Source: an uncultured Gammaproteobacteria bacterium
GTDB taxonomy: Bacteria > Pseudomonadota > Gammaproteobacteria > Chromatiales > Chromatiaceae
Reading direction: 5' to 3'
Assembly (NCBI GenBank): GCA_937926265.1
Contig: CALAZS010000130.1
Span: forward strand, 2,796-66,795
DNA length: 64,000 bases
Both the position numbers and the translations under genes were made by a program. Shown here in pieces: positions 4,528 to 56,960 of this stretch. The notes beneath the pieces are model-generated. The model worked only from the letters and a program-made list of their open reading frames with translations. It was not told the origin of the DNA and made no database searches. Every line of letters starts with the position of its first letter. Within the stretch, counting starts at the first letter, position 1.

Positions 4528-4541
4528 CAGCTAGTATTAAT

Positions 4542-5988: not shown

Positions 5989-6000
5989 ATTTACCCCTTT

Positions 6001-6480: not shown

Positions 6481-6496
6481 ACCTGCTTCATATATG

Positions 6497-9561: not shown

Positions 9562-9573
9562 AACAATATGTCC

Positions 9574-25520: not shown

Positions 25521-27380
25521 CTAGGATTCTGTAAGTTCTGAAATACGGCCTTTTAACTCGGAAATTTCCAGACGTAGTTCACTATTTTCCTGGTTGGCCA
25601 GTGATAACTGGTTCCTGGCTTCTTCAAGGTCATTGCGCAAATCATCACGATCCTGTGAAATGCTGGCATTCAGTGCTTCCAGTTCACTAACCCGGTTCGA
25701 TGCTGATTCACCGGAAGTCTCCTGCATTTGTTTTTCCAGGTCTTCATAATCAGACTCGGCCTGGTCTTTCTCCAGTTGTAATACCGTTAACTCCTCTTTT
25801 AACCTGGCAATATCTGCATCGCGAACCTGGAGATGTTTTTTATGATCGGCGGTTAATGTATCAAACTGCTGTTTGAGTTTATCGTAACCTTCCTCTTCGC
25901 TTTCGAGCTGGCCGGTTAAGGTAATAACTTCCCTTTCGAGTTGCACGATTTCCTTTTTCAGTGCCTCGGTATCACCACTGGAAGAATCGCCTCCGGAACC
26001 ACCGCCTGAATCTGCACTGGTAGGCCTGGCAGCGAGTGCCTCTTCAAGTTCTGAGATTTTGCTGCCGGCCGCTTCCAGCTGCTGGCTTTTTTCCTGCAGC
26101 TGAGCTTCAAGGCTTTGAATTTTTTCGTTAAGGACCTTGAGTTCGCCCGAATCTACTGATGCAGCTGTTGTAGAGGCCGAAGCTGAAGCCTGGGGCGATA
26201 TCTCGGGTGATGACTCGGCAGGTGCAGCTGTTTCCTGCACTGGTTCAGAATTTGGTTCAGAACCTGATTCAGGTTTGTTTTCAGATTCATTTCCCGATTC
26301 ATTTTCAGCCTCATCCGTGGGCATATCGAGGATGCCATCAGGCAGCTTGTCGTATCCACCATCCAGAATGCTGACATGGAACCCCCGCTCTATGAACAGA
26401 AAGCCGGAGGCAATACCCCTGCGACCCGACTGGCTGACAATGACATAATGATGTTCATCGGAAAGACTGGGGATCTGAAAACGCAGGGTCTGGTATGGCA
26501 TATTGATCGCACCCTCGAGGTGGGCCTGCTCGTATTTTTCAGGTGACCTGACGTCAAGCCAGATACCTCCCTGCTCGATAATTGCGGTAGCTTCGTTGTA
26601 ATTGACGGTTTCTGATAATGGATGTTGCACCAACTGGATAAAGTCATCCTTGGCCAGTTTTAGCACTATGCCATCAGAAAGCATCTTGATACTTGAACTT
26701 CTCGGGCTATCCGATAAAAGCGCATCTTCACCAAAAGAGGCCCCGGGACCAAGCTTGGCCACCTCTACCTGCTCGCCGGAAACTTCGTTGTATTTCAAAA
26801 CCAGTGCCTTGCCACGGTGTAACAGGTAATAAAAATCACCTTCGTCACCCTCTGTGATAATCATGTCACCGGTTTTAACTTCCTGTTCCTGCATGCGCAT
26901 CATGACACCCTGCAGATTGGCGGCCGGGATGTTCTGCATGACACGTGACTGCAGCAGCTGACTCATCCAGTCATCATCGCTATCTTCAAACGAAACCTCT
27001 TCAACCTGTTGACCTGATGATTCATGTTCAGCCAGGGCTTCGCTTAAAATACGGCTATCGATTTTGACTATTGTAAGATTCGTCAATGCCTTGGCGGTAA
27101 ACTTTCGCGGCAACTGATGAGCTAATGGGAAACGTGCGGTCGCAGAACCTTCTTCAGCCAGATCAACCTGGGCGGATCCGTTGAAAAGACCAACCTGCCC
27201 TGACAGAAGGTAGACATTAACGTGATCGACATCACCTTCGGAAAAAAGGGTATTGCCCTTGGCAACAGACTCAACATTAACCGAGCCCAGCAACTTCAAT
27301 AAGTTATCCTGTTCCAGCGTATTAAGTGGAATGAGTTTTTTAAGCTGTGCAAATTCCTTGTTTTCAGCAGTTACGGCCAT
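25521..27380 (-). CDS. Tandem cyclic-nucleotide-binding domain / rhodanese-homology / coiled-coil protein
   Basis: 619 aa. Two cNMP-binding domains (second with FGEDALLSDSPRSSSIK), a rhodanese-like domain whose catalytic Cys position is Ser (VIVSQSGRRG), an acidic Ser/Glu/Pro linker and a ~190-aa C-terminal coiled coil. Confidence 0.7.
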   Translation of the reverse strand: MAVTAENKEFAQLKKLIPLNTLEQDNLLKLLGSVNVESVAKGNTLFSEGDVDHVNVYLLSGQVGLFNGSAQVDLAEEGSATARFPLAHQLPRKFTAKALTNLTIVKIDSRILSEALAEHESSGQQVEEVSFEDSDDDWMSQLLQSRVMQNIPAANLQGVMMRMQEQEVKTGDMIITEGDEGDFYYLLHRGKALVLKYNEVSGEQVEVAKLGPGASFGEDALLSDSPRSSSIKMLSDGIVLKLAKDDFIQLVQHPLSETVNYNEATAIIEQGGIWLDVRSPEKYEQAHLEGAINMPYQTLRFQIPSLSDEHHYVIVSQSGRRGIASGFLFIERGFHVSILDGGYDKLPDGILDMPTDEAENESGNESENKPESGSEPNSEPVQETAAPAESSPEISPQASASASTTAASVDSGELKVLNEKIQSLEAQLQEKSQQLEAAGSKISELEEALAARPTSADSGGGSGGDSSSGDTEALKKEIVQLEREVITLTGQLESEEEGYDKLKQQFDTLTADHKKHLQVRDADIARLKEELTVLQLEKDQAESDYEDLEKQMQETSGESASNRVSELEALNASISQDRDDLRNDLEEARNQLSLANQENSELRLEISELKGRISELTES

Positions 27381-31306: not shown

Positions 31307-31954
31307 TTATCGGTAACGCACTGGCATTCTTTGTCTTTGCATTTTCTGCCGGAAGTATTGTCGATAATACATCAGGGCACTGCTGCCATTGGCCGAAACA
31401 TCATAGACTTTCCAACCATTTTTATCCTTGTACATACGAAAATCGAGTCTTGCAGGGTAGCCAGCCGGGTTACCGATGGCAATACTCAACTGAACCTGGC
31501 CTTTACCCATAATTTTGGGGGCAAGGTACTTGACTGACTGGTTACTGAAAGATGTCAGCTTCTGTGCCATGGTTGAAAGAAACTGGGTTTTCAACTCGTT
31601 CTCGACGGCCTTGCGCTGTGGCTCAGACATACGCGAATAGTAAGAACCTGAAGCCCACTTCGCCATGTAAGGGAAGTTGAAATACGGGGCAATTTCGCGG
31701 TCAAGAAAAATGGCAATCTGCTGACCGGAAGGCGCCTGGTTCTGTTTGAAAAATGATACCAGCCTGGTGAGACCTTCTTTTAATACCGCACCAGCCTGTT
31801 CAACATCTGTGGGTGGCTTTGGTTTAACTGGAGCTGGCATTGGTCTGTGCTGGTAGCCATAACCGGGCATCGGCATCTGATAGGGTTGGGCTAATAGTGG
31901 CAGGGAGATTAAACCGCATAGCAATGCAGGTATTAACCGGGTTATCTTCATCAT
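31307..31954 (-). CDS. MlaC/Ttg2D-family periplasmic lipid-binding protein (orphan)
   Basis: 215 aa with a signal peptide. C-terminal ...MYKDKNGWKVYDVSANGSSALMYYRQYF resembles the MlaC family. Confidence 0.6.
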   Translation of the reverse strand: MMKITRLIPALLCGLISLPLLAQPYQMPMPGYGYQHRPMPAPVKPKPPTDVEQAGAVLKEGLTRLVSFFKQNQAPSGQQIAIFLDREIAPYFNFPYMAKWASGSYYSRMSEPQRKAVENELKTQFLSTMAQKLTSFSNQSVKYLAPKIMGKGQVQLSIAIGNPAGYPARLDFRMYKDKNGWKVYDVSANGSSALMYYRQYFRQKMQRQRMPVRYR

Positions 31955-32147
31955 GTTATCCTCAATCGGGTGGTGGTGTCAGTTATTATTGTGATGACTA
32001 GACTGCACCTGTCAGACCAGAAAATCAAGCCACCGGTTTTAGATTTTTCTATGCAAGCTGGACGTAATTTTCTTCATTTGCTCCTATACTTAAGTTATAC
32101 ACTCAAGTAGTTATTAACGGATAAAAAATTAAAAGAAGGTGATCGTT

Positions 32148-32939
32148 ATGTCGAATAACCTGTCAATCTCTCAAGACGACAGACACGTAGTGCGAATTTC
32201 ATTCAATCGTCCCGAACAATCCAACGTAATCGATGAGGCCACGGCCAATGAACTGCGTGACAATCTAAGGCAGTTGGCCAAGGACTCAAGCATCAGGGCC
32301 ATCGTGCTTACCGGTGAGGGTGATCACTTTTGCAAAAGTGTCGATCCTGCCTGGATTCAGTCCTACCAGAACAACAACGTTGACCAGGACAACGACCCCG
32401 GCTCAAAGATTTTCACCATTCTTACCGAACTGGATAATTTTCCCACACCGGTTATTGCCAGCATTAAAGGTGACGCGCTTGGGGTTGGTGCTGCCATGGC
32501 CGCTTGCAGTGACATAGTTGTCTGCGAAAAACAAAGCCGCTTCGCTATCAATGAAGTACGTGCCGGCCTGGCTCCTATTGCTTCAGCGCCCTACATCATG
32601 TCCTGTATCGGTGCCCACAATACCCGGCGCTGGCTGCTTAGCGGTGATTACATGTCATCCGAGCAGGCCGTTTCCATGGGGCTGGCTCATATTAACGTGG
32701 ATTCAGATGAACTGGATGCAACCGTTGAAAACCAGGTTGAGACAGTACTCAAGGGCGTTACATCCGCCCAGAAAGAAACCAAGCAGTTCATCAAGGATAT
32801 TTGTATTCATGGTCACCATGAATCCGCTGCATTTCAACGTTCATCCGGCGTCATGTTTAAACGCTGCCTGAATTCCAAGGCTGCAAAAAAAGGTATCAAC
32901 GATTGGATTGAAAATCAGGAGCCCCCCTGGGAAGACTGA
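32148..32939 (+). CDS. Enoyl-CoA hydratase/isomerase (crotonase) family protein
   Basis: 263 aa from the ATG after an AAGGTG SD. Crotonase-type blocks IRAIVLTGEGDHFCKSVD and PVIASIKGDALGVGAAMA. Confidence 0.75.
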   Translation: MSNNLSISQDDRHVVRISFNRPEQSNVIDEATANELRDNLRQLAKDSSIRAIVLTGEGDHFCKSVDPAWIQSYQNNNVDQDNDPGSKIFTILTELDNFPTPVIASIKGDALGVGAAMAACSDIVVCEKQSRFAINEVRAGLAPIASAPYIMSCIGAHNTRRWLLSGDYMSSEQAVSMGLAHINVDSDELDATVENQVETVLKGVTSAQKETKQFIKDICIHGHHESAAFQRSSGVMFKRCLNSKAAKKGINDWIENQEPPWED

Positions 32940-32946
32940 TTCAGAC

Positions 32947-33001
32947 CTGTTTCCAGCGCCAAAATGGAAACAGAAATCTGGAAACTTGAAACAGGTAACA
33001 G
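32947..33001. repeat. Cluster of CTGTTTC/GAAACAG-type repeats (one inverted pair plus three direct copies)
   Basis: CTGTTTCCA (32947-55) pairs with TGGAAACAG (32965-73). These are followed by TGGAAAC (32979-85), TGAAACAGG (32987-95) and GTAACAG (32995-33001). Confidence 0.6.
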
Positions 33002-33104: not shown

Positions 33105-36100
33105 ATGTCTACGCTTCTGGCTTCAGCCTCAGATTTTTCCAGTCTTGAGCAGGCTCTTGACTGGTTTATCAATCAACCCCCATCTTCTATAGACAGCCAC
33201 TCTCAACGGGCACTAGAGCAACTTTTATTTGTTGCCGGTGAACGCGGCATGCTCGGCTTTGTCGAAACCATTCAAAACAAACTCAACATTAATCTGGGAA
33301 AGGTTAAATTACCTCCAATCATATCTTCCCAGGTTGCTGCACCCGGGTTTTCCACGGCCGAGAATGGTCAGGTATTTAACATTCCCAGTGATCTGGGCGA
33401 ATACCAGCAGGAAAGACTGCGTTTAATGGCCAAAGTAATCAGCCACAAGCTGTTTGGCAGAAAGATTATCGTCAATGTTGGTATTGGCTATATCGGCACA
33501 GCCAACATTACTGCAGCTGCGAGTGCCCTTGATGAAAAACATAATCCGCTTTACTGCGTAATCGGCTACCAGCGACCGTCCAGCCACTCAAGCTGGAAAG
33601 TCAATTTCATGAACCAGGGATTGCCGACCATCACAACGGCAGACAACTCTCTGGCAGAAAAAATAGACAGCGCCCATCGCCGCGGCAATTTAACTGCCAC
33701 CTACCTGCAGGAACAGTCACTATCCGTAGCGGACATAATTTTCGTCGAAACCGAACTTCACGTTCGTAAGTACTCACCCAGAGCTATAGAGCGATCCGAA
33801 GCAGATCCTGAAGCAACCTTGAAACTTATCAGGCAAATAGCCTCTGTCATGCCAGCGCATGCTTTGCTGGTTATTGAAAGTACCGTTTATCCCGGCTTTA
33901 CTCTGCATGATGCACTGCCCCTTGTTAATCAAACCCTGATGCAGAGAGGCCTGATCAAGCAGGGCCAGGATAGTAACCTCGCTTATGGCTTTCACCGGGT
34001 AAAACCTGGCACTGGCTTCATGTCATCGTTTTATAAAATTCCTAGGGACGCCGGCGGTGTCACTGAGCAGGCAGCTAAAACACTTAAGTCTTATTACGAT
34101 GCCACCGGTATCCGCTACCAGATGCATCATGACATCACTACATCTGAATTGATGAAGGACATTGAAAACGCTTCGAAGTTTGGCCTGCTTGACCTGATGA
34201 GCGCCTTTATGAAATCAGCAGAAGCTACCGGCATCAACGGTTTCAGGGTAATCCGTGCAATCGCTGAGGCCAGACCCGATGAGCATGGCCGTTACATCCG
34301 GGAAATTGCCGGTTTACAGGTTGGCGGTTATTGCGTACCGAAAGAACTTGGTCTGCTGATCAATGGTTTAAGACGACACTATGATGTTTCCGAGCTTCAG
34401 ATCCGGCAGATGTTTTATTCACGGATTGTCGCTGCTGCCATCAGTGACTATCGTGCAGAAGATGCTGTCTATCATGTGACCGTAGAATTAAGTCATGCTG
34501 GCAAATCAATATCTGAAAGCCAGCTTTACTGGGCCGGTGTTTCATACAAGGAGGGCGTCGGTGACACGCGCATGGCCGGCACCGAAAGAGGACTCAGGTA
34601 CGCCGCCCATCTCGGGGCTGACAACCGAGTAACCGACCCACTGGTAGTCAACTGGCCTGAACTTCAACATCAAAGGCTGGGTGATCCTGAATGCTGGGGG
34701 CATGGCCTGGCCAACCAGGAACAACTGCGTGATATCCAGGTTCACACCCACATCAATTTGCTTGAAAACCTTTCACCTGATGATGATGCCGTAATACTTG
34801 CAGTAAGACACCCGTCTTATCTTGGTGCCGGCAAACCCGAATCAGCCCGCACCGACAATGAAGGCCATGTTCATCCTGGCATTGATGCTATTACTCTGTC
34901 AGTCAAAATGCGCGGGCAAAAAAACAAACTCATCCTGGATACTTTTGATTTCCTTTCAGACTCAGACATAAAAAAATTTCTGGCACTCGGCTGGCAGGTA
35001 CGCGCCTTTGGCAAAGGTCATATAAGCAAACTCAAAAAAGAAATAACCACTGAAGAAGCCGCCCTATGGCAGCAGGAACTTGAGAGTCGCCTTGCGCCGC
35101 CGGCAACAGCAGTAAACGAAAAAGATGAAAAACCATGTGTTTCATTGCCAGACCTGGCCAACCGTCTCAATGAAGAAATACTCAAAGAATCGGTCAACCA
35201 GCTTTTCAGCCGTTTCAGGCAAACCGGTGAACTGCTTATAGCCCTTTCAGACAATCAATCACTGATGTCCCGGCCCGAGTCACCTGCAGAGGTTGTTAAC
35301 CAGCTGCAACTGATACGCTATTTAAAACACGCCGGTCTGGATGGACTTAACCAGGACCTCGACCGGCTTGCCCATGAATTAATGCAAGCAGATGCAAGTC
35401 TCACTGTTGCAGAACATCTGCGCCTACTGCGACATCGTCCTGACCTGGCGATTTCCAACAAATCGGTTGAACATCCACTTTTTGATCAAAGCCTGGCACC
35501 TGATACCCGCCTGTTGCCTGCCACGGTTTTTGTGACTGCAAACAATGGCAAACTGGAAAAGCGCGAAGACCCTGAAGGCTTACCTTATCGCCTGAGCACC
35601 AAGTGGGTACCTGACCTTGCCAACCTGATACAGGATAAACATGCCTTCCCGGTTGAGTGGTCAAAGTTTTCTATCGAGGTACCAATCAACCTGCGCAAGG
35701 TTTCAGACCAGCCTGTAGAGTTCGATCTGTATGAAGATTTTCTATACCTGCCGCTGGATTTTCGTGACTGGCTGGTAAACGATATCTGGAACCGGGGTTA
35801 TGTGCTGACTACACTCGAAGGTGAGCCCCAGAACCGTGTCAGTTACCTGATGGACGTCAACCTGGACCCGAAGACAGTTGCCAGGGGACGTGGCGGCGTG
35901 CTTTTCTGGCAGGACAGTCGCGAACCGGTATTGCTGACCACGCCCGAAGGCCATGAAATTCCGCTTGAATTAAAAGCCATTGGTGACTACCTCGGCGGAT
36001 CAGCAGAAAGTCTCAATGTTAATTACAACCGCACGATTATCAGCGGCCGGGTTGAAGGCGGCGGCACAGCCAAAACCAACCTGGGCCAGGTACCCGGTCA

Positions 36101-37622
36101 TATGTTCTCAGCAGATGATATTAACTGGCAGGAACGATTGAAAACCTGTGGCCCCTACCTGCAGGGATTAACGCCGCGTTCTGTTTTCCGGGTGCGCTGG
36201 AGCTACCCCGAGAAACCGGGTGATACCTTCCAGATGATCGGCAGGGCTTCACCATCAACCATGCGGCTTGGTCATGTGTTTGCAGGTACCGATGCATTTG
36301 ATGTTTCACCCGAACAGACAGCTTACACACTAGGCTGGAACAACGCTGAAGTGCTTGGACATGATATCGCTGCAGTACACATTGCACTGAACCTCGATAA
36401 CGTCATGTCCAACAACTATTACACCGATACCGGCAGTAATATTGATTTGTTCTGTGAACGTGACCCCAAAGGCAGTTTCCGTGACTATGCCGGCTATGGA
36501 CTGCTGATGGTTATTTACACCTACAACCAGATGAAGGCTTTCCAGGAAAGGCAAACTGCGCTCCCACAACCCTGTATTGACTACCTGCAGTTCTGGTTTG
36601 ATGGATTCCTTGAACGCTTTTTCTCACTTGAGCAGGGTAGAAAAGTACCAAATAAAAACTTTTTTGAACGTTTTTACAACGTAAAAGATAATTTTTTAAC
36701 AACTGACGCACCAAACCAGGTCGAGCTGCTCATCGATGAGTGGCTTGATACGCTCTGGTTAAATTATGTGCCCTATCATGTGTTAAGAAACCGCATGACT
36801 CGTGGCTTCAACCCCGGAATAGAAACCGCATTTACAACCGGGCGTGAAGAACGCATGTTTGATGTTCAGGACAAGGAAAAGGCCCGTAGCTTTTTGAAAA
36901 ACCAGCTTGAAGTTATCGATCTTGCCAATGCCATTGGCAGATCAATTGAGCGTCCTTTGAATTTTGATTTTGACCGGGCAATGTCTGAATTAAATCAAAA
37001 GCTTGCCCAACTGGATTCCCCTAACACCATAAATGCTCTTGAGACTCAGGAACAGCCGGATTACCAGGATATCTATGAACTCAGCTTTTACGGCCCATTG
37101 CAGGAGGATGTGTTCACCATTCTCGATCACAATGATCAAAACCGGCTCGTCATAGCCAAGGCCAGACCCACTGTTTTCATTGATAAAATGGACGCCAATA
37201 TCAATCAGCGAATGCGCTTAAGTGGTCTGCGCCTGGTTAAAATGTTTGAAAACTCAGTTACTGGCGAGGTACCTGACATTATCAGGTCTTACCTGGCAGT
37301 ATGGAAAGGCCCGGAAAGCCATGCTCCGGGAGAGTACGATATTCAAAAGCAGGAAAACACCACGGCCTTACTTAAGCTTATCCAGAAAGACTTCCGGATT
37401 GCCCGCATGCTAAACCAGAAGCACCTGGAAAAATTCTCTGATATTGAATGGTTAAGTGTTGAAGCCGGTTCGCAAGATATGCAATCTGGAGAAGAACTGA
37501 CTGGCGATGTTCTGTCAGGAGATATTTTGGCAGGATATATTCTGGATCAGAAGCAGGTTAAGTTCAGACTGACTGAGAATGGAGAGCTGCATCAAACCAG
37601 CAGCAGTAATTTACCTGAATAG
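33105..37622 (+). CDS. Giant multidomain protein: nucleotide-sugar (UDP-glucose/GDP-mannose) dehydrogenase-like N-terminal half + ~850-aa unassigned C-terminal region
   Basis: Rossmann GIGYIG, LVIESTVYPGFT, catalytic-Cys block GGYCVPKE and C-terminal UDP-binding-type block GVSYKEGVGDTRMAG...VTDP. The rest has no family I recognise. ATG at 33105 preferred over GTG at 33099. Confidence 0.7.
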   Translation: MSTLLASASDFSSLEQALDWFINQPPSSIDSHSQRALEQLLFVAGERGMLGFVETIQNKLNINLGKVKLPPIISSQVAAPGFSTAENGQVFNIPSDLGEYQQERLRLMAKVISHKLFGRKIIVNVGIGYIGTANITAAASALDEKHNPLYCVIGYQRPSSHSSWKVNFMNQGLPTITTADNSLAEKIDSAHRRGNLTATYLQEQSLSVADIIFVETELHVRKYSPRAIERSEADPEATLKLIRQIASVMPAHALLVIESTVYPGFTLHDALPLVNQTLMQRGLIKQGQDSNLAYGFHRVKPGTGFMSSFYKIPRDAGGVTEQAAKTLKSYYDATGIRYQMHHDITTSELMKDIENASKFGLLDLMSAFMKSAEATGINGFRVIRAIAEARPDEHGRYIREIAGLQVGGYCVPKELGLLINGLRRHYDVSELQIRQMFYSRIVAAAISDYRAEDAVYHVTVELSHAGKSISESQLYWAGVSYKEGVGDTRMAGTERGLRYAAHLGADNRVTDPLVVNWPELQHQRLGDPECWGHGLANQEQLRDIQVHTHINLLENLSPDDDAVILAVRHPSYLGAGKPESARTDNEGHVHPGIDAITLSVKMRGQKNKLILDTFDFLSDSDIKKFLALGWQVRAFGKGHISKLKKEITTEEAALWQQELESRLAPPATAVNEKDEKPCVSLPDLANRLNEEILKESVNQLFSRFRQTGELLIALSDNQSLMSRPESPAEVVNQLQLIRYLKHAGLDGLNQDLDRLAHELMQADASLTVAEHLRLLRHRPDLAISNKSVEHPLFDQSLAPDTRLLPATVFVTANNGKLEKREDPEGLPYRLSTKWVPDLANLIQDKHAFPVEWSKFSIEVPINLRKVSDQPVEFDLYEDFLYLPLDFRDWLVNDIWNRGYVLTTLEGEPQNRVSYLMDVNLDPKTVARGRGGVLFWQDSREPVLLTTPEGHEIPLELKAIGDYLGGSAESLNVNYNRTIISGRVEGGGTAKTNLGQVPGHMFSADDINWQERLKTCGPYLQGLTPRSVFRVRWSYPEKPGDTFQMIGRASPSTMRLGHVFAGTDAFDVSPEQTAYTLGWNNAEVLGHDIAAVHIALNLDNVMSNNYYTDTGSNIDLFCERDPKGSFRDYAGYGLLMVIYTYNQMKAFQERQTALPQPCIDYLQFWFDGFLERFFSLEQGRKVPNKNFFERFYNVKDNFLTTDAPNQVELLIDEWLDTLWLNYVPYHVLRNRMTRGFNPGIETAFTTGREERMFDVQDKEKARSFLKNQLEVIDLANAIGRSIERPLNFDFDRAMSELNQKLAQLDSPNTINALETQEQPDYQDIYELSFYGPLQEDVFTILDHNDQNRLVIAKARPTVFIDKMDANINQRMRLSGLRLVKMFENSVTGEVPDIIRSYLAVWKGPESHAPGEYDIQKQENTTALLKLIQKDFRIARMLNQKHLEKFSDIEWLSVEAGSQDMQSGEELTGDVLSGDILAGYILDQKQVKFRLTENGELHQTSSSNLPE

Positions 37623-37659: not shown

Positions 37660-38088
37660 ATGGACACTGACAAATCTCTTTTGCTGCAACGTACCTTCAT
37701 GGCTATTGCAGCCCTTAGTGGTGCTACTGCGGTTGCATTGGGTGCCTACGCAAGCCACGGTCTTAAAAATGTTCTAACAACAGATTCTCTGGCGGTTATT
37801 CAGACCGCAATGGACTACCAGTTTATTCACACGCTGGCACTGCTCTTCGTAAGTCTTGTACCATTTAAAAGGACTCCGGCAAACAGTCGCCTGCTGATGT
37901 TGTCCGGAAGTTTGTTTGTTGCGGGTATCCTTTTATTCAGCGTTAACCTTTACGCTATTCAGATCCTGCATTTCACCGCCCTGAGCAAACTGACACCAGT
38001 CGGCGGTGTTATGTTCATAATCGGTTGGCTAATCCTTTTCATTCTCGCGTTTAAGAAATCCAATGCAGAAAAAAATACTGATCATTGA
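37660..38088 (+). CDS. DUF423 (YgdD-like) small membrane protein
   Basis: 142 aa from the internal ATG with four hydrophobic helices (GATAVALGAYASHGLK motif). The upstream ORF extension overlaps the giant gene and was rejected. Confidence 0.7.
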   Translation: MDTDKSLLLQRTFMAIAALSGATAVALGAYASHGLKNVLTTDSLAVIQTAMDYQFIHTLALLFVSLVPFKRTPANSRLLMLSGSLFVAGILLFSVNLYAIQILHFTALSKLTPVGGVMFIIGWLILFILAFKKSNAEKNTDH

Positions 38089-39466
38089 AGATGATGTAAA
38101 TCTGGGTCAGATGCTGCTGATGCACTTCGAGGATGAAGGCTTCAGGACCCAACATGTTCCTTCCTGCGAGAAAGCCCGGGAAACAATCAAGCATTCCCAT
38201 TTCGACCTGGTGCTACTTGATCAGCAATTACCTGACGGTAACGGCATTGATTTACTTGATGACCTGGTATTACAGAACCCGGATCGACCGGTGATAATGA
38301 TGACCGGACACCATGACCTTGAGCTGGCCATCACCGCCATTAAAAAAGGTGCTGCGGACTTCATTCACAAGCCCGTGGCTACAGCTGACCTTCAACTTGC
38401 GGTCAGCAAGGCACTCAAAAACTACCAGGATGCAACATCTGCAATTTATGAAACAGACCGTGAAGACAGCCTTAATTTATCCCGGGAACTGATTGGCAAA
38501 AGCAGTGCCATGCTGGCTATCAGCAAGGAAATTGCACTGAGTGCGCAAAGCCATGCGAGTGTTTTAGTCACAGGTGAATCCGGCACCGGCAAAGAACTGA
38601 TCGCCAAGCTGATTCACCAGCATAGCAGCCGGGCAGATAATCCGTTTATTGCCGTAAACTGTGCGGCAATAGTTGATAACCTGCTTGAAAGTGAGCTGTT
38701 TGGACATGAAAAAGGTGCTTTTACCGGTGCCTCTGAAAGAAAGCCCGGTAAATTTGAACTGGCTGAGAACGGTACCCTGTTTCTTGATGAGATTGGTGAA
38801 CTGGCAATGCCGCTCCAGGCCAAGCTTCTGCGTGCCCTTCAGGAGCAAACCATTGAACCGGTAGGCTCTACACGTTCATTGAAAATCAATGCCAGGGTGA
38901 TAGCCGCCACCAACCGCGACCTGTTTAGTTTGTCGCGTGATAAACAGTTTCGTGAAGACCTTATCTACCGTTTGAATGTTATCAACATCCAGCTTCCGCC
39001 TCTTAGAAAACGCAAGGAGGACATTCCCCTGCTGGCGAAAGCTTTTATTGAAAAGTACGCCCAGGAAAATGCCTGTTCCATGCCAGTCATCAACCAGGAC
39101 TTCATTGCGCATTTGCAATCGTATGACTGGCCGGGAAATGTGCGTGAACTAAACAATGCAATCACCCATGCAATGCTGCACTGCCGAGGTGGCCAGCTCA
39201 ATATCGAGCTTCTTAACCTGGGCGCTGATCTGGAATCCAATCTTGATAACGACCTGGCATCAAGACAGATTTCTGACAGGCAAACTAACCTGGTTTCGGA
39301 AAATCATGATGAAGAATTACTGACGCTGGATGAACTTGAGGCACGTCACATACAGAAAGTACTGAACCATACCGGTGGCCATAAATCGAACACCTGCAGG
39401 ATACTGGGAATATCCCGCCCCGCCCTTGATCGCAAAATCGAAAAATACCAGCTAATCGTCACATAG
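38063..39466 (+). CDS. Sigma54-dependent response regulator (REC-AAA+-HTH, NtrC family), no adjacent kinase
   Basis: 467 aa. REC (ILIIEDD...LLDQQLPDG), Walker A GESGTGKE, intact GAFTGA and a C-terminal Fis-type HTH ([16 protein letters not shown]). Confidence 0.85.
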
Positions 39467-39591: not shown

Positions 39592-39607
39592 TGGCACGGT
39601 TCTCGCT
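39592..39607 (+). promoter_or_regulatory. Sigma54 (-24/-12) promoter upstream of the ECF sigma gene
   Basis: TGGCACGGTTCTCGCT has a perfect TGGCACG -24 and a -12 of TCGC at exact spacing. A GAGGAG SD and the ATG follow 20-30 nt downstream. Confidence 0.65.
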
Positions 39608-39638: not shown

Positions 39639-40160
39639 ATGTCAAGCATCACACTTAGCGGTTTTTTTGAACTCAAATCCCGAAAAAACAAAGAGGAACT
39701 CTTTAGCGAGTATGTTCATCAATATGCTGATGACCTTTACCGCTATGCCTACTGGTTATGCAACAGCAAAGTGGTTGCAGAAGATCTGGTTCAGGAGACA
39801 ATGCTGCGCGCCTGGAAATCCATCCACAAACTTCAGGACAGTAAAGCTGTTAAAAGCTGGCTGTTTACCATTTTAAGGCGTGAAAACGCTCGACGTTTTG
39901 AAAGAAAACAGTTTGACTATTGTGATTTTCCAACGGAAGAAGTGTCCTGTCAGCGCTGTGATTACGACACATCGACCGAAGCGCATGTTCTCAGAAACGC
40001 GCTTAAACAACTGCCAGTTGAGTACCGTGAACCTTTATTACTGCAAATCGAGTTTGGATACAGTCAGAGAGAAATTGCGCAGCATCTGGACATCAGCCTG
40101 GCTGGAGCTGGTACACGTCTATTCCGGGCCCGTCAAAAACTCAAGAAATTGGTAGAGTGA
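39639..40160 (+). CDS. ECF-type sigma-70 family RNA polymerase sigma factor
   Basis: 173 aa. Region 2 (DDLYRYAYWLCNSKVVAEDLVQETMLRAWK) and region 4 (GYSQREIAQHLDISLAGAGTRLFRARQKL). No anti-sigma gene follows. Confidence 0.85.
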   Translation: MSSITLSGFFELKSRKNKEELFSEYVHQYADDLYRYAYWLCNSKVVAEDLVQETMLRAWKSIHKLQDSKAVKSWLFTILRRENARRFERKQFDYCDFPTEEVSCQRCDYDTSTEAHVLRNALKQLPVEYREPLLLQIEFGYSQREIAQHLDISLAGAGTRLFRARQKLKKLVE

Positions 40161-49969: not shown

Positions 49970-50104
49970 ATCTAAATTGCATTGTTATAGTACACTTTAA
50001 AAAAAATTCGCTATCATAATGATTATATTACAGGAATTTACAGTAATCTGTGATAGCCTGTTCAAAAAACCGGACATCATAATCACAATTTGAAAGGGAT
50101 CAAT

Positions 50105-51142
50105 ATGTACAAGCTGCGTCAACTGCTTCTATCGAGCCTGGCCGGGCTTATCATTTCAACAGCTGTTATGGCGGAATCCGTTGAACTCAACAGCAATCAT
50201 CCACAAGAATATACCGTCGTCAAAGGCGATACACTCTGGGACATTTCCGCAATGTTTCTGCGTGATCCATGGCGCTGGTCAGACATCTGGTATGTCAACG
50301 ATCAAATTGCCAACCCTCACTTGATTTATCCTGGTGATGTGCTGGTTCTGACCTATGTGAACGGCAAACCAATGCTGACCAAAAAAGGTTGCCCTCCGAA
50401 CAAACTCTGCCCCGAGGTCAAATCCTTACCGCTCGAAGATGCCATTCCGATGATACCTATCGATGCTATTCGTCCATTCCTGACGCGTCCAAGTGTACTC
50501 AATGATGGTGAATATGAAACACTGCCTTATGTAGTGGCTTTCGCAGATGAGCATATTATCGGTGGTGCCGGACAAAACATTTATGTCAGATCCATTGAGG
50601 ATGACAGTGAAATAACCTTCGATATTATCCGTAAAGGCGGTGAATACCGGGATCACGAAACCAATGAACTGCTCGGTATTGAGGCCATTTACGTCGGCAA
50701 CTCGAAGTTAAGACGTCTGGGTGACCCTGCCACCCTGCACATCACCAGTTCAGAACAGCACACCACTAAAGGTGATCGCCTGGTTCCTTCTTCTTTCGAC
50801 AGTCCGTTCAGGGATTTGTATCCAAAAGTTCCGGAAGCCGATATCAATGGTGCGATTATTTCTGTCATGAATGGCGTTACCCAGATCGGACAGTACAATA
50901 TCGTTGTACTTGACCGTGGCGCCTCAAACGGCCTGCAGGTCGGTGACGTATTAAGCATTTTACACCGCGGTCCTGATATTCGTGACACAGTTTCAGACAA
51001 CCCCCGCGAGATGGTAAAACTGCCTGATGAAGAAGCCGGACAACTTGTTATTTTCAGAACATTTGACCGCGTAAGTTTCGGTATTGTTATGTTTGCGACG
51101 CGCGCCATCCACATTCATGACAAAGTTGTTAATCCTGAATAA
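50105..51142 (+). CDS. LysM peptidoglycan-binding domain protein
   Basis: Signal peptide plus LysM (YTVVKGDTLWDISAMFL...NPHLIYPGDVL). Start at the ATG after an AAAGGGA SD. Confidence 0.8.
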   Translation: MYKLRQLLLSSLAGLIISTAVMAESVELNSNHPQEYTVVKGDTLWDISAMFLRDPWRWSDIWYVNDQIANPHLIYPGDVLVLTYVNGKPMLTKKGCPPNKLCPEVKSLPLEDAIPMIPIDAIRPFLTRPSVLNDGEYETLPYVVAFADEHIIGGAGQNIYVRSIEDDSEITFDIIRKGGEYRDHETNELLGIEAIYVGNSKLRRLGDPATLHITSSEQHTTKGDRLVPSSFDSPFRDLYPKVPEADINGAIISVMNGVTQIGQYNIVVLDRGASNGLQVGDVLSILHRGPDIRDTVSDNPREMVKLPDEEAGQLVIFRTFDRVSFGIVMFATRAIHIHDKVVNPE

Positions 51143-51188
51143 CAGTTAATATTATTTCTCACTTCTTTCTGTCAGGGAGGACAGGGCA

Positions 51189-52283
51189 GTGAAATGCACT
51201 CAAAAAGACTGGCTAAAACTCGTCAGGGCACCCGGAATTGGTGCCCGGCGACTTTCCCCGCTAATCAAGCAATCCAATAATGTTGCAGAGTTACTGCAAA
51301 ATTCACCGGACAAGCTTGCAACTCAGCTCGAAATTGCACTAAATACAGAAAGCGAACTGCTTGAACGCGATTTGCAATGGCTCGAGCAGGACAATCATGA
51401 AATTATCACCATTGGTGACAGCAACTACCCGCAACTGCTTTTCCAGATAGAAGACCCACCCATCGTTCTTTTTTGCCAGGGTAATACGGCGTTGCTTGAT
51501 CTGCCTCAGCTGGCCATTGTTGGTAGTAGAAATCCCAGCCGCCAGGGTAACGAAAATGCCCATGCTTTTGCCAGGTACCTGGCTGAATCGGGACTTACAA
51601 TCACCAGCGGCATGGCACTTGGCATTGATACCAGCGCACATCAGGGTGCCTTGTCTGTCTCTGGTAACACCATCGCTGTCATTGCCACCGGCCCGGATCG
51701 TGTCTATCCGGCAAGCAATCACAAGCTTGCCCATGAAATCAGTGAAAATGGTCTGATCATTTCAGAATTTCCGCCCGGAACTGAAGCCAGGCCTGGACAT
51801 TTTCCCAAACGTAACCGGCTGATCAGCGCTATTTCACTCGGTACGCTGGTGGTCGAAGCTACCATTAAAAGCGGTTCATTGATTACAGCCAGGCTTGCGC
51901 TCGAGCAGGGCCGGGAAGTCTTTGCGATACCCGGATCAATTCACAGCCCGCAAAGCCGGGGCTGTCATCATCTGATTAAGCAGGGAGCCAAGCTTGTCGA
52001 AAATGCCCAGGATATCATTGATGAACTCTCTGCCATGTTCTCCAGCCTGCAGAATTATGTTCAACCTCAGGAAGCTGATTCATTAATTTCTCCGCCGGCT
52101 TTGGATGCTGACTATCTGCAACTGCTTGAAATTATTGGCTGGGAACCGGTTTTAGTGGAACAGATTATTGCATTAAGCCCGTTTACTGCAGAGGAAGTTT
52201 CATCCATGCTACTGTTGCTTGAGCTGCAAGGTCATGTATTATCCGCACCCGGAGGCTTCTATTGCCGGGCCAGGCCAACCTGA
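51189..52283 (+). CDS. dprA: DNA-processing protein DprA
   Basis: 364 aa with AIVGSRNPS, GMALGIDTSAHQGAL and FPKRNRLISAISLGTLVVEA. GTG start after a GGGAGG SD. Confidence 0.9.
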   Translation: MKCTQKDWLKLVRAPGIGARRLSPLIKQSNNVAELLQNSPDKLATQLEIALNTESELLERDLQWLEQDNHEIITIGDSNYPQLLFQIEDPPIVLFCQGNTALLDLPQLAIVGSRNPSRQGNENAHAFARYLAESGLTITSGMALGIDTSAHQGALSVSGNTIAVIATGPDRVYPASNHKLAHEISENGLIISEFPPGTEARPGHFPKRNRLISAISLGTLVVEATIKSGSLITARLALEQGREVFAIPGSIHSPQSRGCHHLIKQGAKLVENAQDIIDELSAMFSSLQNYVQPQEADSLISPPALDADYLQLLEIIGWEPVLVEQIIALSPFTAEEVSSMLLLLELQGHVLSAPGGFYCRARPT

Positions 52284-52400
52284 TTCCCTGATCAGCCTGA
52301 TCCCCTGATTTGATATCAAGTCTTGTTAAAACTTTGTCATCGCTGTTATTGTCAACAGCATACTGAATGCAAACACACTCTGCGACTAACTGGAGCAACC

Positions 52401-52877
52401 GTGAACGAAAACGTTATTGACGTCCTCATATATATTTATGAGAACTACATGGGCAGCGAGGAAGAGGTTCCCCATGACCAGATCATGCTTGAAGAAGAGC
52501 TTTCCAAGGCTGGCTTTCCAAATTCGGAAATCAAGAAAGCATTCGACTGGCTGGATGATCTGGCTCGTCACCAGATAATCATGAACCAGAATGAGGCCAG
52601 TAGCCCATCAATGCGTTTGTTAACAACCAAGGAGCAACAGCGCCTTGATCTTGAAACCCGCGGCCTGTTATTAACTCTTGAGCACAATGGCCTGCTGGAC
52701 AAAACCAGTCGGGAACTGGTAATTGAGCGCGCCATGGCGCTTGATGAAGATCAACTTTCCAGTGATGACATAAAATGGATCATTCTTCTTGTGCTGATGA
52801 ATCAGCCTGGCAAGGAATCTGCCTTTGCCCAGATTGAAGAAATGATCTACAACCAACCAACTGAACACCTGCATTAA
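52401..52877 (+). CDS. smg: Smg (DUF494) protein
   Basis: 158 aa from the GTG after a TGGAG SD (VNENVIDVLIYIYENYM...), in the dprA-smg-topA position. The upstream ORF-track extension was rejected. Confidence 0.8.
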   Translation: MNENVIDVLIYIYENYMGSEEEVPHDQIMLEEELSKAGFPNSEIKKAFDWLDDLARHQIIMNQNEASSPSMRLLTTKEQQRLDLETRGLLLTLEHNGLLDKTSRELVIERAMALDEDQLSSDDIKWIILLVLMNQPGKESAFAQIEEMIYNQPTEHLH

Positions 52878-52883
52878 TCTCTT

Positions 52884-55184
52884 ATGAATCTGGTTATTGT
52901 GGAATCGCCCGCAAAGGCGAAAACCATCGAAAAATATCTTGGTAAGGATTTCCAGGTACTGGCATCTTATGGCCACGTACGCGACCTGGTGCCCAAAGAA
53001 GGTGCGGTCGATACCGCAAACCAGTTTGCGATGAAATACCAGACCATCGAGCGCAATGAAAAACATGTTAAAAGCATTGTCAGCAAGCTGAAAAATGCTG
53101 ACAACCTGATGCTCGCAACTGACCCGGACCGCGAAGGTGAAGCGATTTCCTGGCACCTGCTGGAATTACTGCAATCCAGGAAAAAACTCAAAAACAAGGG
53201 AATCTATAGAGTCGTTTTCAACGAAATCACCAAGAAAGCGGTTCAGCATGCCGTTGATAACCCGCGTGAAATCTCCATGGACCTGGTCAATGCCCAACAG
53301 GCCCGTCGCGCGCTTGATTACCTGGTTGGTTTTAACCTGTCTCCACTTTTATGGAAAAAAATCCGCCGTGGACTGTCTGCAGGGCGCGTACAAAGTCCTG
53401 CGCTGCGTATGATTGTTGAGCGCGAAGAGGAAATCGAAGCATTTGTTCCAAGAGAGTACTGGAGCGTAGAAGCCGTTTCCAGCAAGGACAACCAGAAATT
53501 CTCTGCCAAACTGAACACCTTTGCGGGTGAAAAAGTCGAACAGTTCAGCATCACGGATGAAACGCGTGCTGCTGAAGTGGAAAAAGCCCTTTTGGCCGCC
53601 GCCAATGGTCTTCTTGATGTCAACAAGGTAACCCGCAAACAGCGCAAGCGTAATCCCTCGCCACCGTTTACCACGTCGACACTGCAACAGGAAGCGGCTC
53701 GAAAACTGGGTTTTACTGCACAACGAACCATGCGCATTGCCCAGCAATTATATGAAGGCATTGATATAGGGGACGGTACAGTCGGTCTGATTACCTATAT
53801 GCGTACTGACTCGGTCAACCTGTCGGACGATGCCCTCGGCGAATTACGTGAATTTATCGCAAAAAAATATGGCAAGGACCAGTTGCCAGACGCTGTTCGC
53901 AGTTTCAAAACCAAATCAAAAAATGCCCAGGAAGCTCACGAAGCGATTCGCCCTACTTCGGCCAAGCGCGAGCCGGTCAAGGTGGCACAATTTCTTAGCA
54001 AGGATCAGCAAAAACTGTATGACCTGATCTGGAAAAGAACCGTTGCCTGCCAAATGATCCACGCCACCATGCACACCGTATCTGTTGATCTGGGTGCAGG
54101 TGAAGGCAATGTTTTCCGGGCCAATGGCTCAACCATCGCCAACCCGGGCTTTATCCAGGTTTACCAGGAAGGTAAAGACGATGTAAAACCGGATGATGAC
54201 AAAGACGAAAAACTGCTGCCGGAACTGGTCGAAGGTGAAAAAGTTGACTTAATTTCAATCACACCCAATCAGCATTTCACCGAGCCTCCACCCAGGTTCA
54301 GTGAAGCCAGCCTGGTCAAGGCGCTTGAAGAATACGGTATCGGCCGACCTTCAACATACGCATCGATTATTTCAACGCTGCAGGATCGTGAATACGTTGA
54401 ACTTGAGCAAAAACGTTTTTACCCGACTGATGTTGGCCGAATCGTAAAAAAGTTTCTGACCAATTATTTCAACCAGTACGTTGATTACGATTTCACTGCA
54501 CGTCTGGAAGACGAACTTGATGCCGTCTCCAGGGGCGAGGAAGAATGGGTGCCGCTACTGGAAAAATTCTGGCAGCCATTCAAAGACCAGATTGATCATA
54601 CCCAGGAAAATGTTCAACGTTCTGATGTCACCCAGGAAAAAATTGATGAATCCTGCCCTAAATGCAGTGGCCAGCTTTCAATAAGGCTGGGAAGAAATGG
54701 CCGCTTTATAGGTTGCACCAATTACCCTGAATGCGATTACACCCGTAACCTGAATGATGACCAGGGTAGCAACGAGCCACAGGAAGTTGGTCGTGACTGC
54801 CCCAAATGCAGCAAGCCACTGATTTACAAACAGGGGCGTTATGGAAAATTCATCGGCTGTTCCGGTTACCCCGATTGCAAACATATCGAACCACTGGAAA
54901 AACCAACCGATACCGGCGTTGCCTGCCCCAAGTGTAATGACGGCAGCCTGATGAAACGTAAATCCAGGCGCGGCAAAATTTTCTATTCGTGTTCGACCTA
55001 TCCAAAGTGCGATTACGCCATTTGGAACGAACCGGTATCTGAACCCTGCCCACAATGCGGATGGCCTGTTTTGACGATTAAAACAACCAAACGTCGGGGA
55101 ACTGAAAAGGTATGTCCACAACAGGACTGCTCTTTTGCAGAACCTTACGAGGCACCTGAATACGAGAAAGAGGACACCGAATAA
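52884..55184 (+). CDS. topA: DNA topoisomerase I
   Basis: 766 aa. Toprim start MNLVIVESPAKAKTIEKYLG, active-site region GLITYMRTDS and four C-terminal CxxC...C zinc ribbons. Confidence 0.95.
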   Translation: MNLVIVESPAKAKTIEKYLGKDFQVLASYGHVRDLVPKEGAVDTANQFAMKYQTIERNEKHVKSIVSKLKNADNLMLATDPDREGEAISWHLLELLQSRKKLKNKGIYRVVFNEITKKAVQHAVDNPREISMDLVNAQQARRALDYLVGFNLSPLLWKKIRRGLSAGRVQSPALRMIVEREEEIEAFVPREYWSVEAVSSKDNQKFSAKLNTFAGEKVEQFSITDETRAAEVEKALLAAANGLLDVNKVTRKQRKRNPSPPFTTSTLQQEAARKLGFTAQRTMRIAQQLYEGIDIGDGTVGLITYMRTDSVNLSDDALGELREFIAKKYGKDQLPDAVRSFKTKSKNAQEAHEAIRPTSAKREPVKVAQFLSKDQQKLYDLIWKRTVACQMIHATMHTVSVDLGAGEGNVFRANGSTIANPGFIQVYQEGKDDVKPDDDKDEKLLPELVEGEKVDLISITPNQHFTEPPPRFSEASLVKALEEYGIGRPSTYASIISTLQDREYVELEQKRFYPTDVGRIVKKFLTNYFNQYVDYDFTARLEDELDAVSRGEEEWVPLLEKFWQPFKDQIDHTQENVQRSDVTQEKIDESCPKCSGQLSIRLGRNGRFIGCTNYPECDYTRNLNDDQGSNEPQEVGRDCPKCSKPLIYKQGRYGKFIGCSGYPDCKHIEPLEKPTDTGVACPKCNDGSLMKRKSRRGKIFYSCSTYPKCDYAIWNEPVSEPCPQCGWPVLTIKTTKRRGTEKVCPQQDCSFAEPYEAPEYEKEDTE

Positions 55185-55192
55185 ATTCAGCT

Positions 55193-55747
55193 ATGCTGTC
55201 TGCTTTCCAAGCCCGTGTTGCTGCAAAAGCCATTGAAGCCGGCAATGTCATCGCCTATCCAACTGAGGCGGTATTCGGCCTGGGTTGTGATCCTTTAAAT
55301 TTTCAGGCTGTTTCACGTTTACTTGAAATAAAACAGCGTCCGGTTGAAAAAGGACTGATACTGATCGCATCAGATTTTTCGCAGTTACGCCCTTATGTAA
55401 AATCTGTTGATCCTGAGGTCATTCAGCCTGCACTTGAAAGCTGGCCCGGGCCTAACACCTGGATTTTCCCAGCCCGTGAAAACACTCCTTACTGGTTGAC
55501 TGGAAAATTCACTGGTATTGCTGTCAGGATCACGGCTCATCCAGTTGTCAGGCAGCTTTGTGATGCTGTTAACATGCCGCTGGTTTCGACCAGTGCCAAT
55601 CATAGTGGTCAACAGCCTGCGCGGTCTTTGCTTGAATGTCGACTACGCTGTCCCGAGGCTGATCTTTTCATTAATGGACAGGTAAACAGGCAGGCTAAAC
55701 CTTCAACAATTAGGGATTTGCTATCTGGCTCTGTTATTAGAAGCTAA
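55193..55747 (+). CDS. tsaC: L-threonylcarbamoyladenylate synthase TsaC (YrdC type)
   Basis: 184 aa with VIAYPTEAVFGLGCDP and LVSTSANHSGQ. Confidence 0.9.
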   Translation: MLSAFQARVAAKAIEAGNVIAYPTEAVFGLGCDPLNFQAVSRLLEIKQRPVEKGLILIASDFSQLRPYVKSVDPEVIQPALESWPGPNTWIFPARENTPYWLTGKFTGIAVRITAHPVVRQLCDAVNMPLVSTSANHSGQQPARSLLECRLRCPEADLFINGQVNRQAKPSTIRDLLSGSVIRS

Positions 55748-55774
55748 AAGCGTCGTTTTTTACACTTGACCCAT

Positions 55775-55887: not shown

Positions 55888-55934
55888 TTCAGATAATCTT
55901 ATGAACTAACAAAGTAAATCATGTATTTTTTTGA

Positions 55935-56960
<1,026 letters not shown>

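Follow-up and report, generated by a model that had tools for sequence, protein, structure and literature searches.

A nucleotide-sugar dehydrogenase fused to a predicted, very divergent SelO/YdiU-like domain in an uncultured gammaproteobacterium

The Fusion Gene

We have analyzed a single long gene in a 64,000-nucleotide (nt) stretch of DNA, hereafter the window, which comes from an uncultured gammaproteobacterium of the Chromatiaceae (assembly GCA_937926265.1, contig CALAZS010000130.1, positions 2,796 to 66,795 of the forward strand). The gene codes for a protein of 1505 amino acids (aa), in which a nucleotide-sugar dehydrogenase-like module is followed by a long region whose core is, as judged by predicted structure and profile comparison, a remote relative of the SelO/YdiU proteins. 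The parts of the gene and the genes that lie downstream are listed in Table 1. The open reading frame (ORF) is unbroken (33099/33105-37622, plus strand); the 1505 aa are counted from the ATG at 33105, and a GTG two codons upstream extends the frame. The G+C content across the gene is 0.47-0.52 and differs little from that of the flanks.

Among 5.8 billion proteins, six homologues (P0002-P0007) were found, all of them full-length, with the same architecture and with 47-66% identity. The metagenome-assembled genomes (MAGs) that encode them are labeled Nitrosomonas, Elusimicrobia and "Enterobacteriaceae", and others come from several metagenomes. With a profile of the C-terminal half, only 26 proteins were retrieved from 1.84 billion representatives, and a protein search with the diverse alignment A3 (described below) returned two. 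A scan of genome contigs with the single protein gave no match; the same scan with an alignment gave three true loci and one ordinary dehydrogenase. The protein, which had been called an orphan in the initial annotation, is thus not a true orphan but is nearly one. That it is the product of a single genuine gene, with a complete dehydrogenase-like module joined to a long extra region, is borne out by the unbroken ORF and the full-length homologues. A frameshift or a misassembly of two ordinary genes, the artefact that the annotation had to reckon with, is ruled out, since the same architecture recurs in at least seven independent assemblies.

Three parts of the protein lie outside the two recognizable modules. 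The N-terminal extension has no family match in Pfam or NCBIfam; from about residue 40 on, it is part of the block common to the giant relatives considered below (positions from about 37 of the hidden Markov model (HMM) of A1, the alignment of full-length homologues). The helical linker differs in length between homologues and forms long helices in the first AlphaFold model. The C-terminal tail has no family match in Pfam, and its model (also the first AlphaFold model) is moderate or poor.

Table 1. Parts of the fusion gene, residue correspondence with YdiU, and downstream features (positions in the window)
Feature	Position	Strand	Basis or remark
Whole gene, 1505-aa fusion of dehydrogenase and predicted SelO-like module	33105..37622	+	ORF; stop codon 37620-37622
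N-terminal extension, residues 1-114	33105..33446	+	Family-specific; closes with invariant ERLRLM motif; kept among homologues
Nucleotide-sugar 6-dehydrogenase module, residues ~115-645	33447..35039	+	Pfam, NCBIfam and PDB matches
C410 codon, predicted dehydrogenase nucleophile	34332..34334	+	Aligned with Cys of GGHCLTKD in 3g79; invariant in family
Variable helical linker, residues ~646-778	35040..35438	+	Gap-rich, weakly conserved columns 780-900 of A1
Predicted SelO/YdiU-like kinase-fold module, residues 779-1377 (modeled part)	35439..37235	+	AlphaFold2 on A3 and Foldseek
SelO-aligning core, residues 935-1233 (E. coli YdiU 83-369)	35907..36803	+	hhalign
K957 codon (YdiU K107, P. syringae SelO K113)	35973..35975	+	Alignment; invariant where members align
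GR(1047)ASPSTMR(1054)LGH, SelO-specific arginine pair (YdiU R170/R177, SelO R176/R183)	36243..36266	+	hhalign
Catalytic-loop motif H1092-IALNLDN1099 and D1108 (YdiU H240, N244, D246, N247 and DFG-like D256)	36378..36428	+	hhalign
C-terminal tail, residues 1378-1505	37236..37619	+	Conserved blocks in A1 among close homologues
YdiU to window protein: K107 to K957; R170 to R1047; R177 to R1054; H240 to H1092			hhalign
YdiU to window protein: N244 to N1096; D246 to D1098; N247 to N1099; D256 to D1108			hhalign
DUF423 gene	37660-38088	+	Most plausible ATG 37660, 37 nt past the fusion-gene stop
Receiver-domain sigma-54 activator gene	38063-39466		Pfam/NCBIfam; overlapped by DUF423 gene
Sigma-54-like element TGGCACGGTTCTCGCT (TGGCAC-N5-TCGCT)	39592-39607	+	One mismatch to TGGCAC-N5-TTGCW
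Extracytoplasmic function (ECF) sigma factor gene	39639-40160		Pfam/NCBIfam

The Dehydrogenase Half

In Pfam the UDP-glucose/GDP-mannose dehydrogenase family is divided into three domains, and the window protein matches them in the correct order: PF03721 (N domain) over residues 122-325, with 32.6 bits against a gathering threshold of 27; PF00984 (central domain) over residues 346-425, with 23.4 bits, just under the cut-off of 25.4; and PF03720 (C domain) over residues 478-573, with 17.8 bits, under the cut-off of 30. The best NCBIfam model, TIGR03026, matches at an E-value of 1.9e-25, yet at 89.5 bits it stays below its cut-off of 189.8; the next match is NF040825, a model of archaeal UDP-N-acetylmannosamine dehydrogenase (E 4e-21). 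When the PDB sequences were searched with phmmer, the sole matches were two N-acetylhexosamine-type enzymes, 3g79 (E 1.3e-18), which matches contiguously over residues 123-521, and 4r16 (E 6.9e-16).

The Rossmann motif GIGYIG (residues 126-131), the central K351/N355 pair, C410 within GGYCVPKE and the UDP-binding D487-x-R489 are all present and do not vary among the homologues; G126, G128, G131, K351, N355 and C410 align with 3g79 and are kept in nearly all dehydrogenase-bearing relatives. The family hallmarks that had been read from the sequence by eye therefore stand, with the three domains in order and the quoted motifs invariant among homologues. The accompanying statement that the module is interrupted by insertions does not, because much of the supposed insertions, e.g., residues 140-200, aligns with 3g79.

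Two observations count against taking this half for an ordinary family member: of the curated cut-offs, only that of PF03721 is passed, and a Glu (E414) stands in place of Asp after the catalytic Cys-x-x-Lys. Judged by these comparisons, the module is a divergent, not a typical, predicted member of the nucleotide-sugar dehydrogenase family and is closest to the UDP-N-acetylhexosamine dehydrogenases (WecC/3g79-like branch). With the UDP-N-acetylhexosamine 6-dehydrogenases of the WecC/Cap5O/TviB type it shares three domains, the GxGxxG motif, the K/N pair, the Cys of GGxCxxK and D-x-R. It differs from them in the low bit score and the Glu just mentioned, in an N-terminal extension of ~110 aa, in an enlarged C-terminal domain and in the ~850 further residues fused to it. 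It also differs in lying outside any polysaccharide gene cluster; as originally noted, a capsule or lipopolysaccharide (LPS) context is lacking, and a Pfam scan of the neighborhood found no glycosyltransferase, polysaccharide export or LPS genes.

The C-Terminal Half

No Pfam, NCBIfam or PDB-sequence match to the C-terminal half was found, even at E ≤ 10. By eye, its conserved blocks (ARGRGG, ELKAIG, GRASPSTMRLGH, VHIALNLDNVM and YYTDTGS) are SelO-like and follow one another in the SelO order. This resemblance was treated as a lead and then tested by structure prediction and by profile-profile alignment.

The first AlphaFold model, built with six close homologues, reached a predicted local distance difference test (pLDDT) value of 54, with values below 50 over the conserved core, and was too poor for structure search. 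AlphaFold2 run on A3, an alignment of 16 sequences covering residues 779-1377, gave a pLDDT of 87.2 and a predicted template modeling score (pTM) of 0.89. The module so modeled carries its own N-terminal beta region and a C-terminal helical bundle. In a Foldseek search of this model against the PDB, ranks 1-9 were all YdiU/SelO structures (E 1.8e-5 to 1.7e-4, probability 0.99-1.0), followed at E ≥ 8e-3 by maltokinase and by ordinary protein kinases, the latter with E-values at least 100-fold worse. In the BFVD viral structure library there was no significant match, only weak kinase ones.

In the first hhalign comparison, of alignment A2 with the lone SelO sequence of E. coli, nothing but the RASPSTMRLGH motif was aligned, at a probability of 1.6%; hhalign pairs this SelO-like arginine motif with RVAPSHLRFGH. 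The SelO side was then represented by an alignment of 12 diverse sequences (E. coli and plasmid-borne genes from 11 genera), and A3 aligned with it over 248 columns at E 2.7e-4 and a score of 42.1. One hundred column-shuffled controls had a mean score of 16.6 (standard deviation 2.4, maximum 27.4), and the reversed alignment scored 16.2. The real score lies ~10 standard deviations above the shuffled controls, and significance appeared only with the deeper profiles on both sides.

The same alignment maps the active-site residues of YdiU onto the window protein (Table 1). Both arginines of the SelO-specific motif, R1047 and R1054, are invariant in A3, and K957 is invariant in the members aligned over its region. 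Together with H1092, D/E1098, N1099 and D1108, these residues are kept in almost every member, down to 22-25% identity. The HRD aspartate (position H+2) is replaced, as in SelO, by an almost invariant Ala (A1094). In Pseudomonas syringae SelO, K113, R176 and R183 hold the buried gamma-phosphate of a flipped ATP, and N253 and D262 bind the metal (PMC8097203). A study of YdiU lists the mutants K107A, N244A, D246A, N247A and D256A, the last of which it describes as inactive (bioRxiv 10.1101/692707). The predicted flipped-nucleotide site of SelO is complete in the window protein, consisting of K957, R1047, R1054, N1099 and D1108.

The proposed SelO relationship consists of three concordant lines of evidence, the fold search, the controlled profile-profile score and the active-site mapping, each of them moderate when taken individually. 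Within the limits of a predicted structure, they assign the C-terminal core, by a remote link, to the protein-kinase fold and there to the SelO/YdiU branch. The ~850 residues that the initial annotation could match to nothing have in this way received an assignment of their core. A profile assignment of this region, which the annotation had named as a point that would speak against its reading, was obtained in part, by profile-profile and structure comparison and not by any sequence-to-profile search.

Several observations weigh against a SelO relationship. The Pfam SelO model was not matched at E ≤ 10 by any of six members tested, and hmmsearch with the A2 and A3 profiles retrieved no YdiU/SelO chain among the PDB sequences. 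The global TM-scores of the Foldseek matches are low (0.25-0.34), and the hhalign probability is just 42%. In three of the four most distant members, Asn replaces D1108. An equivalent of the alphaC Glu (YdiU E130) is not fixed, the hhalign alignment being gapped there; E1010 is conserved in close homologues only, and an acidic pair at 1004/1005 is conserved more widely. Finally, the C-terminal Cys/Sec tail is absent: E. coli SelO terminates in ...VSCSS, the window protein ends in ...SSSNLPE, and its homologues share no C-terminal Cys. Because no SelO profile is matched, the alphaC Glu is unplaced, the Cys/Sec tail is missing and Asn stands at D1108 in distant members, we file the domain outside PF02696, as a predicted new and very divergent SelO-like family.

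SelO/YdiU itself (selenoprotein O, a protein adenylyltransferase/UMPylase; PF02696; PDB 6eac, 6k20, 6lna, 9jyn) matches the C-terminal core best in structure and has the same motif order; the elements shared with it are the beta3 Lys, the arginines of R-x-x-P-S-x-x-R-x-G, an H-x-x-x-N-x-D-N loop that lacks the HRD Asp, and a DFG-like Asp. The window domain is set apart, besides its lack of detectable sequence-to-profile similarity and of the redox tail, by large insertions (e.g., one of ~45 residues that separates the Lys strand from the alphaC region) and by its extra N-terminal beta and C-terminal helical and tail regions. Moreover, SelO stands alone, whereas the new domain always follows a nucleotide-sugar dehydrogenase in the same chain or is surrounded by sugar enzymes.

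Family Members and Giant Relatives

The full-length HMM matches, as one contiguous block from ~38 to 1450 (dehydrogenase, linker and SelO-like domain), the proteins P0009, P0010, P0011, P0015, P0018 and P0019, and in ordered pieces P0008, P0012, P0014 and P0021. The proteins matched in either way are 1857-5034 aa long. P0012 and P0032 are labeled Candidatus Omnitrophica/Omnitrophota. A GHMP kinase follows the SelO-like domain in seven giant relatives, and in P0010 and P0015 an NTP-transferase and then the GHMP kinase come directly after it. NTP-transferase, UDPGP or LbH, aldo-keto reductase and GNAT domains are also found in the giant relatives. In the most distant members the SelO-like core is all that is left of the unit, joined to PfkB or ROK sugar kinases and an SDR epimerase; these members also combine the core with a dehydroquinate-synthase-like cyclase and with HAD and PHP phosphatases.

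From these architectures, the recurrent company of the putative SelO-like domain is sugar and nucleotide-sugar metabolism, and the dehydrogenase and the SelO-like domain are co-inherited in fixed order as one evolutionary unit. The unit is found in about 25 protein clusters worldwide, many of them with proteins of 2000-5000 residues. The public names of the family proteins are "UDP-N-acetyl-D-mannosaminuronate/glucosamine dehydrogenase" or "hypothetical".

The Elusimicrobia homologue P0007 (1862 aa; locus L005, identical with L010) has ~100 extra N-terminal residues that open with a signal-peptide-like hydrophobic stretch, and its C terminus is longer by ~140 residues, among which are several hydrophobic segments and an HETGH motif. 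By its sequence P0007 may be membrane-anchored, unlike the window protein. At locus L023, the gene of P0010 (2732 aa) comes after, and on the same strand as, the gene of a 2389-aa giant protein (2472-9641, with a faint G1RFP match), and a gene of at least 816 aa that runs off the contig end (2-2452) also lies upstream. Since P0010 is preceded by giant genes in L023, the multi-enzyme relatives sit, at this locus, in arrays of giant genes.

Proposed Function and Alternatives

We favor, with moderate confidence, the reading that the fusion protein is one cytoplasmic bifunctional enzyme that couples oxidation of a nucleoside diphosphate (NDP)-sugar to SelO-type nucleotidyl-transfer chemistry. The N-terminal half would oxidize an NDP-sugar to the NDP-uronic acid with nicotinamide adenine dinucleotide (NAD+), by the thioester mechanism of its family at C410. 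By analogy with SelO, the C-terminal half would bind its nucleotide flipped, with K957, R1047 and R1054 on the buried distal phosphate and N1099 and D1108 on the metal. An attack on the alpha-phosphate of a nucleotide-pyrophosphate donor would then lead to nucleoside monophosphate (NMP) transfer or pyrophosphate cleavage rather than to phosphorylation. Since the two halves travel together and sit within chains of sugar-activating enzymes in the larger relatives, the SelO-like domain would belong to the same nucleotide-sugar pathway as the dehydrogenase and would act on, or with, the nucleotide ligands of the dehydrogenase. While the domain identities, the conservation and the co-inheritance are read from the sequences themselves, it is from these that we infer the catalytic activity of both domains and the type of chemistry.

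Should the SelO-like domain be catalytic, its target would most readily be a ligand of the nucleotide-sugar pathway, donor or acceptor, to which we give not quite an even chance. A protein, through classical AMPylation or UMPylation and possibly of the dehydrogenase itself, is a somewhat less likely target, and hydrolysis of NAD+ or of an NDP-sugar would be a distinctly doubtful third. SelO/YdiU is reported to handle the dinucleotide NAD+, which it binds and cleaves, and to partner with NAD-dependent dehydrogenases (PMC13391479); the PDB entries 9jyn, 9jym and 9l29, cited with this work, are among our Foldseek matches. Because of this reported activity, a dinucleotide-type ligand is plausible for the window domain by analogy. 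A SelO-style NADase mechanism is unsupported, as the C-terminal Cys tail reported to be required for it (PMC13391479) is missing here. The role of a "missing" pyrophosphorylase, which would make the NDP-sugar for the dehydrogenase, was dropped as well, since P0010, P0015, P0009 and P0014 carry conventional nucleotidyltransferase-type domains alongside.

A more specific version, which we put forward as speculative and unlikely as a whole, is that the SelO-like domain binds the NDP-uronic acid product of the fused dehydrogenase in flipped orientation and then transfers NMP or phospho-uronate to an acceptor. The newly formed carboxylate could in that case stand in for the distal phosphate held by K957, R1047 and R1054.

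The alternative that survives best is that the C-terminal half is a conventional SelO-type protein AMPylase or UMPylase, which modifies the fused dehydrogenase or other proteins and functions in stress or redox regulation, without any role in small-molecule sugar metabolism; it is a sub-variant of the bifunctional-enzyme explanation and differs from it in the acceptor only. Known SelO/YdiU proteins modify proteins on Ser/Thr/Tyr or Tyr/His (PMC8097203; bioRxiv 10.1101/692707) and physically associate with NAD-dependent dehydrogenases (PMC13391479), and the mapped SelO active-site residues are present in the window protein. However, across the family the enzymes that recur beside the domain all belong to sugar or nucleotide-sugar metabolism, as would be expected of a pathway enzyme more than of a general regulator, and the divergence from SelO is extreme. 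We consider a purely regulatory protein modifier to be rather unlikely, though a contender of some weight.

An ordinary phosphotransferase, i.e., a maltokinase/APH-type sugar or small-molecule kinase that supplies sugar phosphate to the pathway, is improbable. The mycobacterial maltokinase 4u94 is indeed the first non-SelO Foldseek match, and the domain co-occurs with sugar-pathway enzymes; but the 4u94 match is weak (E 8.3e-3, probability 0.14, versus ~2e-5 and 0.99-1.0 for SelO), the HRD Asp is replaced by the nearly invariant A1094, the SelO-specific arginine pair is invariant, and the relatives already own dedicated GHMP, ROK or PfkB kinases.

To the same low degree we credit the idea that the protein is secreted or injected, as an effector or toxin with enzymatic domains directed at another cell. 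The patchy occurrence across phyla (Gammaproteobacteria-like contigs, Nitrosomonas, Elusimicrobia and Omnitrophota MAGs), the lack of a conserved gene context, the location of some giant relatives beside other giant genes, the hydrophobic N- and C-terminal extensions of P0007 and the precedent of bacterial kinase-fold effectors such as SidJ would all agree with it. Nevertheless, the window protein has no signal peptide, no secretion-system gene lies near its gene, and NAD-dependent nucleotide-sugar dehydrogenases are enzymes of the cytoplasm. The gene stands among housekeeping genes, with a G+C content little different from theirs, and the family is found in MAGs of Nitrosomonas, which are free-living nitrifiers.

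Still less probable is a scaffold or pseudoenzyme with one or both halves catalytically dead. Both domains score far below their family thresholds, and SelO itself was long classed as a pseudokinase (PMC8097203), yet every mappable catalytic or ligand residue is conserved down to 22-25% identity, as would not be expected of dead domains.

Gene Neighborhood and the Rest of the Window

The gene order described downstream of the fusion gene is correct: the DUF423 gene begins within 37 nt of the stop codon and is followed by the sigma-54 activator and ECF sigma factor genes. From this order the initial annotation had proposed a self-contained module with a sigma-54-driven ECF sigma factor, which we regard as the least probable alternative: in its favor are the tight spacing (the 37-nt gap and the overlap of DUF423 with the activator gene) and the sigma-54-like element directly downstream of the activator gene, ~30 nt ahead of the ECF sigma start, but none of the three genes adjoins the fusion gene at the homologous loci L001-L006, L009 and L026-L028, those of the ~66%-identical relatives included, and the window as a whole has no more sigma-54 motifs than chance would give (5 found versus 4.2 expected). 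Judging from this comparison of loci, the DUF423, activator and ECF sigma genes do not belong to the fusion-protein system. PADLOC models gave no match for the fusion protein or for its two immediate neighbors.

At the loci of the closest relatives (~66% identical, L026-L028), the fusion gene has hemF on one side and a radical-SAM gene plus MlaC on the other, and a LysM-dprA-DUF494-topA-tsaC block is next to it. In the window, ORFs that resemble this block in size and order are found at 50090-56960, 13-20 kb downstream, with topA alone confirmed, and the window's MlaC gene (31307-31954) is located 1.2 kb upstream of the fusion gene, i.e., on the other side than in L026-L028. The comparison suggests a local rearrangement between the window and these genomes. 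At L001 and L009, the two Nitrosomonas-type loci with the downstream side visible, a gene for a 987-995-aa protein comes two genes after the fusion gene (L001 7216-10179, L009 16960-19947); the protein of this type at L001 carries a 2-hydroxyacid dehydrogenase domain, and a 476-aa protein of unknown family comes next. By the gene content seen, this shared neighborhood appears lineage-specific and is absent from the window.

Directly upstream of the fusion gene is an enoyl-CoA hydratase (crotonase) gene (32139-32939, plus strand). Binding of SelO/YdiU to the enoyl-CoA hydratase/dehydrogenase complex FadB/HADHA has been reported (PMC13391479); other loci do not have the two genes side by side, so that their position here is probably a coincidence. 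Between the stop codon of this gene and the start of the fusion gene, at 32945-32996 (plus strand), there are nested inverted repeats on CTGTTTCCA/TGGAAACAG, one pair with 9-nt perfect arms 9 nt apart and another with 12-nt arms 28 nt apart, as well as a direct repeat, AAAATGGAAACAG/AAACTTGAAACAG. From its sequence, the repeat cluster could be an operator, or a terminator hairpin that lacks a T-run.

The gene content of the window resembles that of a gammaproteobacterial chromosome (def-fmt-rsmB, an ntrYX-like pair, trkA, trkH and topA). A 619-aa protein encoded at 25521-27380 (minus strand) has a sole, partial NCBIfam match (residues 153-253, E 5e-12), to the model of the family 2B encapsulin shell; the two may simply have an inserted domain in common, without the protein being an encapsulin. 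At the far left of the window (873-8637, minus strand) lies a nitrogen-scavenging cluster. It codes for a urea carboxylase of full length (1207 aa; TIGR02712, 1925 bits), and the gene of a type III glutamine synthetase is only a few genes from it.

Discussion

The fold described here and its chemistry are known; what is new is a very divergent SelO-like family in a new fusion. No description of the fusion or the family was found in the full-text literature on SelO with UDP-glucose dehydrogenase, on kinase-like folds and on domain architecture, the SelO genomic-context study PMC10364804 being checked for the word "SelO" alone.

The kinase fold is used for nucleotidyl-transfer-type reactions in the Legionella glutamylase SidJ and in the NiRAN domain of coronavirus nsp12, an NMP/RNA transferase; neither is among the significant structural matches of the window domain, and no sequence relationship to either was detected. 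FKP-like enzymes are bifunctional sugar-1-kinase/pyrophosphorylases composed of a GHMP kinase and a nucleotidyltransferase. The giant relatives P0010 and P0015 share NTP-transferase and GHMP kinase domains with them, which places the dehydrogenase/SelO-like unit in a sugar-activation pathway, whereas the window protein itself has no NTP-transferase or GHMP kinase domain in Pfam or NCBIfam.

SelO-type pseudokinases have shown the kinase fold to be capable of AMPylation, UMPylation and, lately, NAD+ cleavage. The new family is far more diverged, is seen by no sequence profile and represents the first SelO-type branch found permanently joined to a metabolic enzyme. Its fusion partner and the sugar-activating enzymes of its relatives hint at nucleotide sugars as possible substrates, which, if true, would carry the chemistry of the fold past protein modification.

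Public annotation misses half of this protein, and at 1505 aa it offers a tractable way into the giant, uncharacterized multi-enzyme proteins of the Omnitrophota. If the SelO-like domain does act on the NDP-uronic acid of its fused dehydrogenase, the fusion would be a channeled two-step enzyme that yields a new protein modification or a new metabolite, elaborated in the giant Omnitrophota proteins into whole sugar-activation assembly lines, and it would represent a new enzymatic use of the kinase fold.

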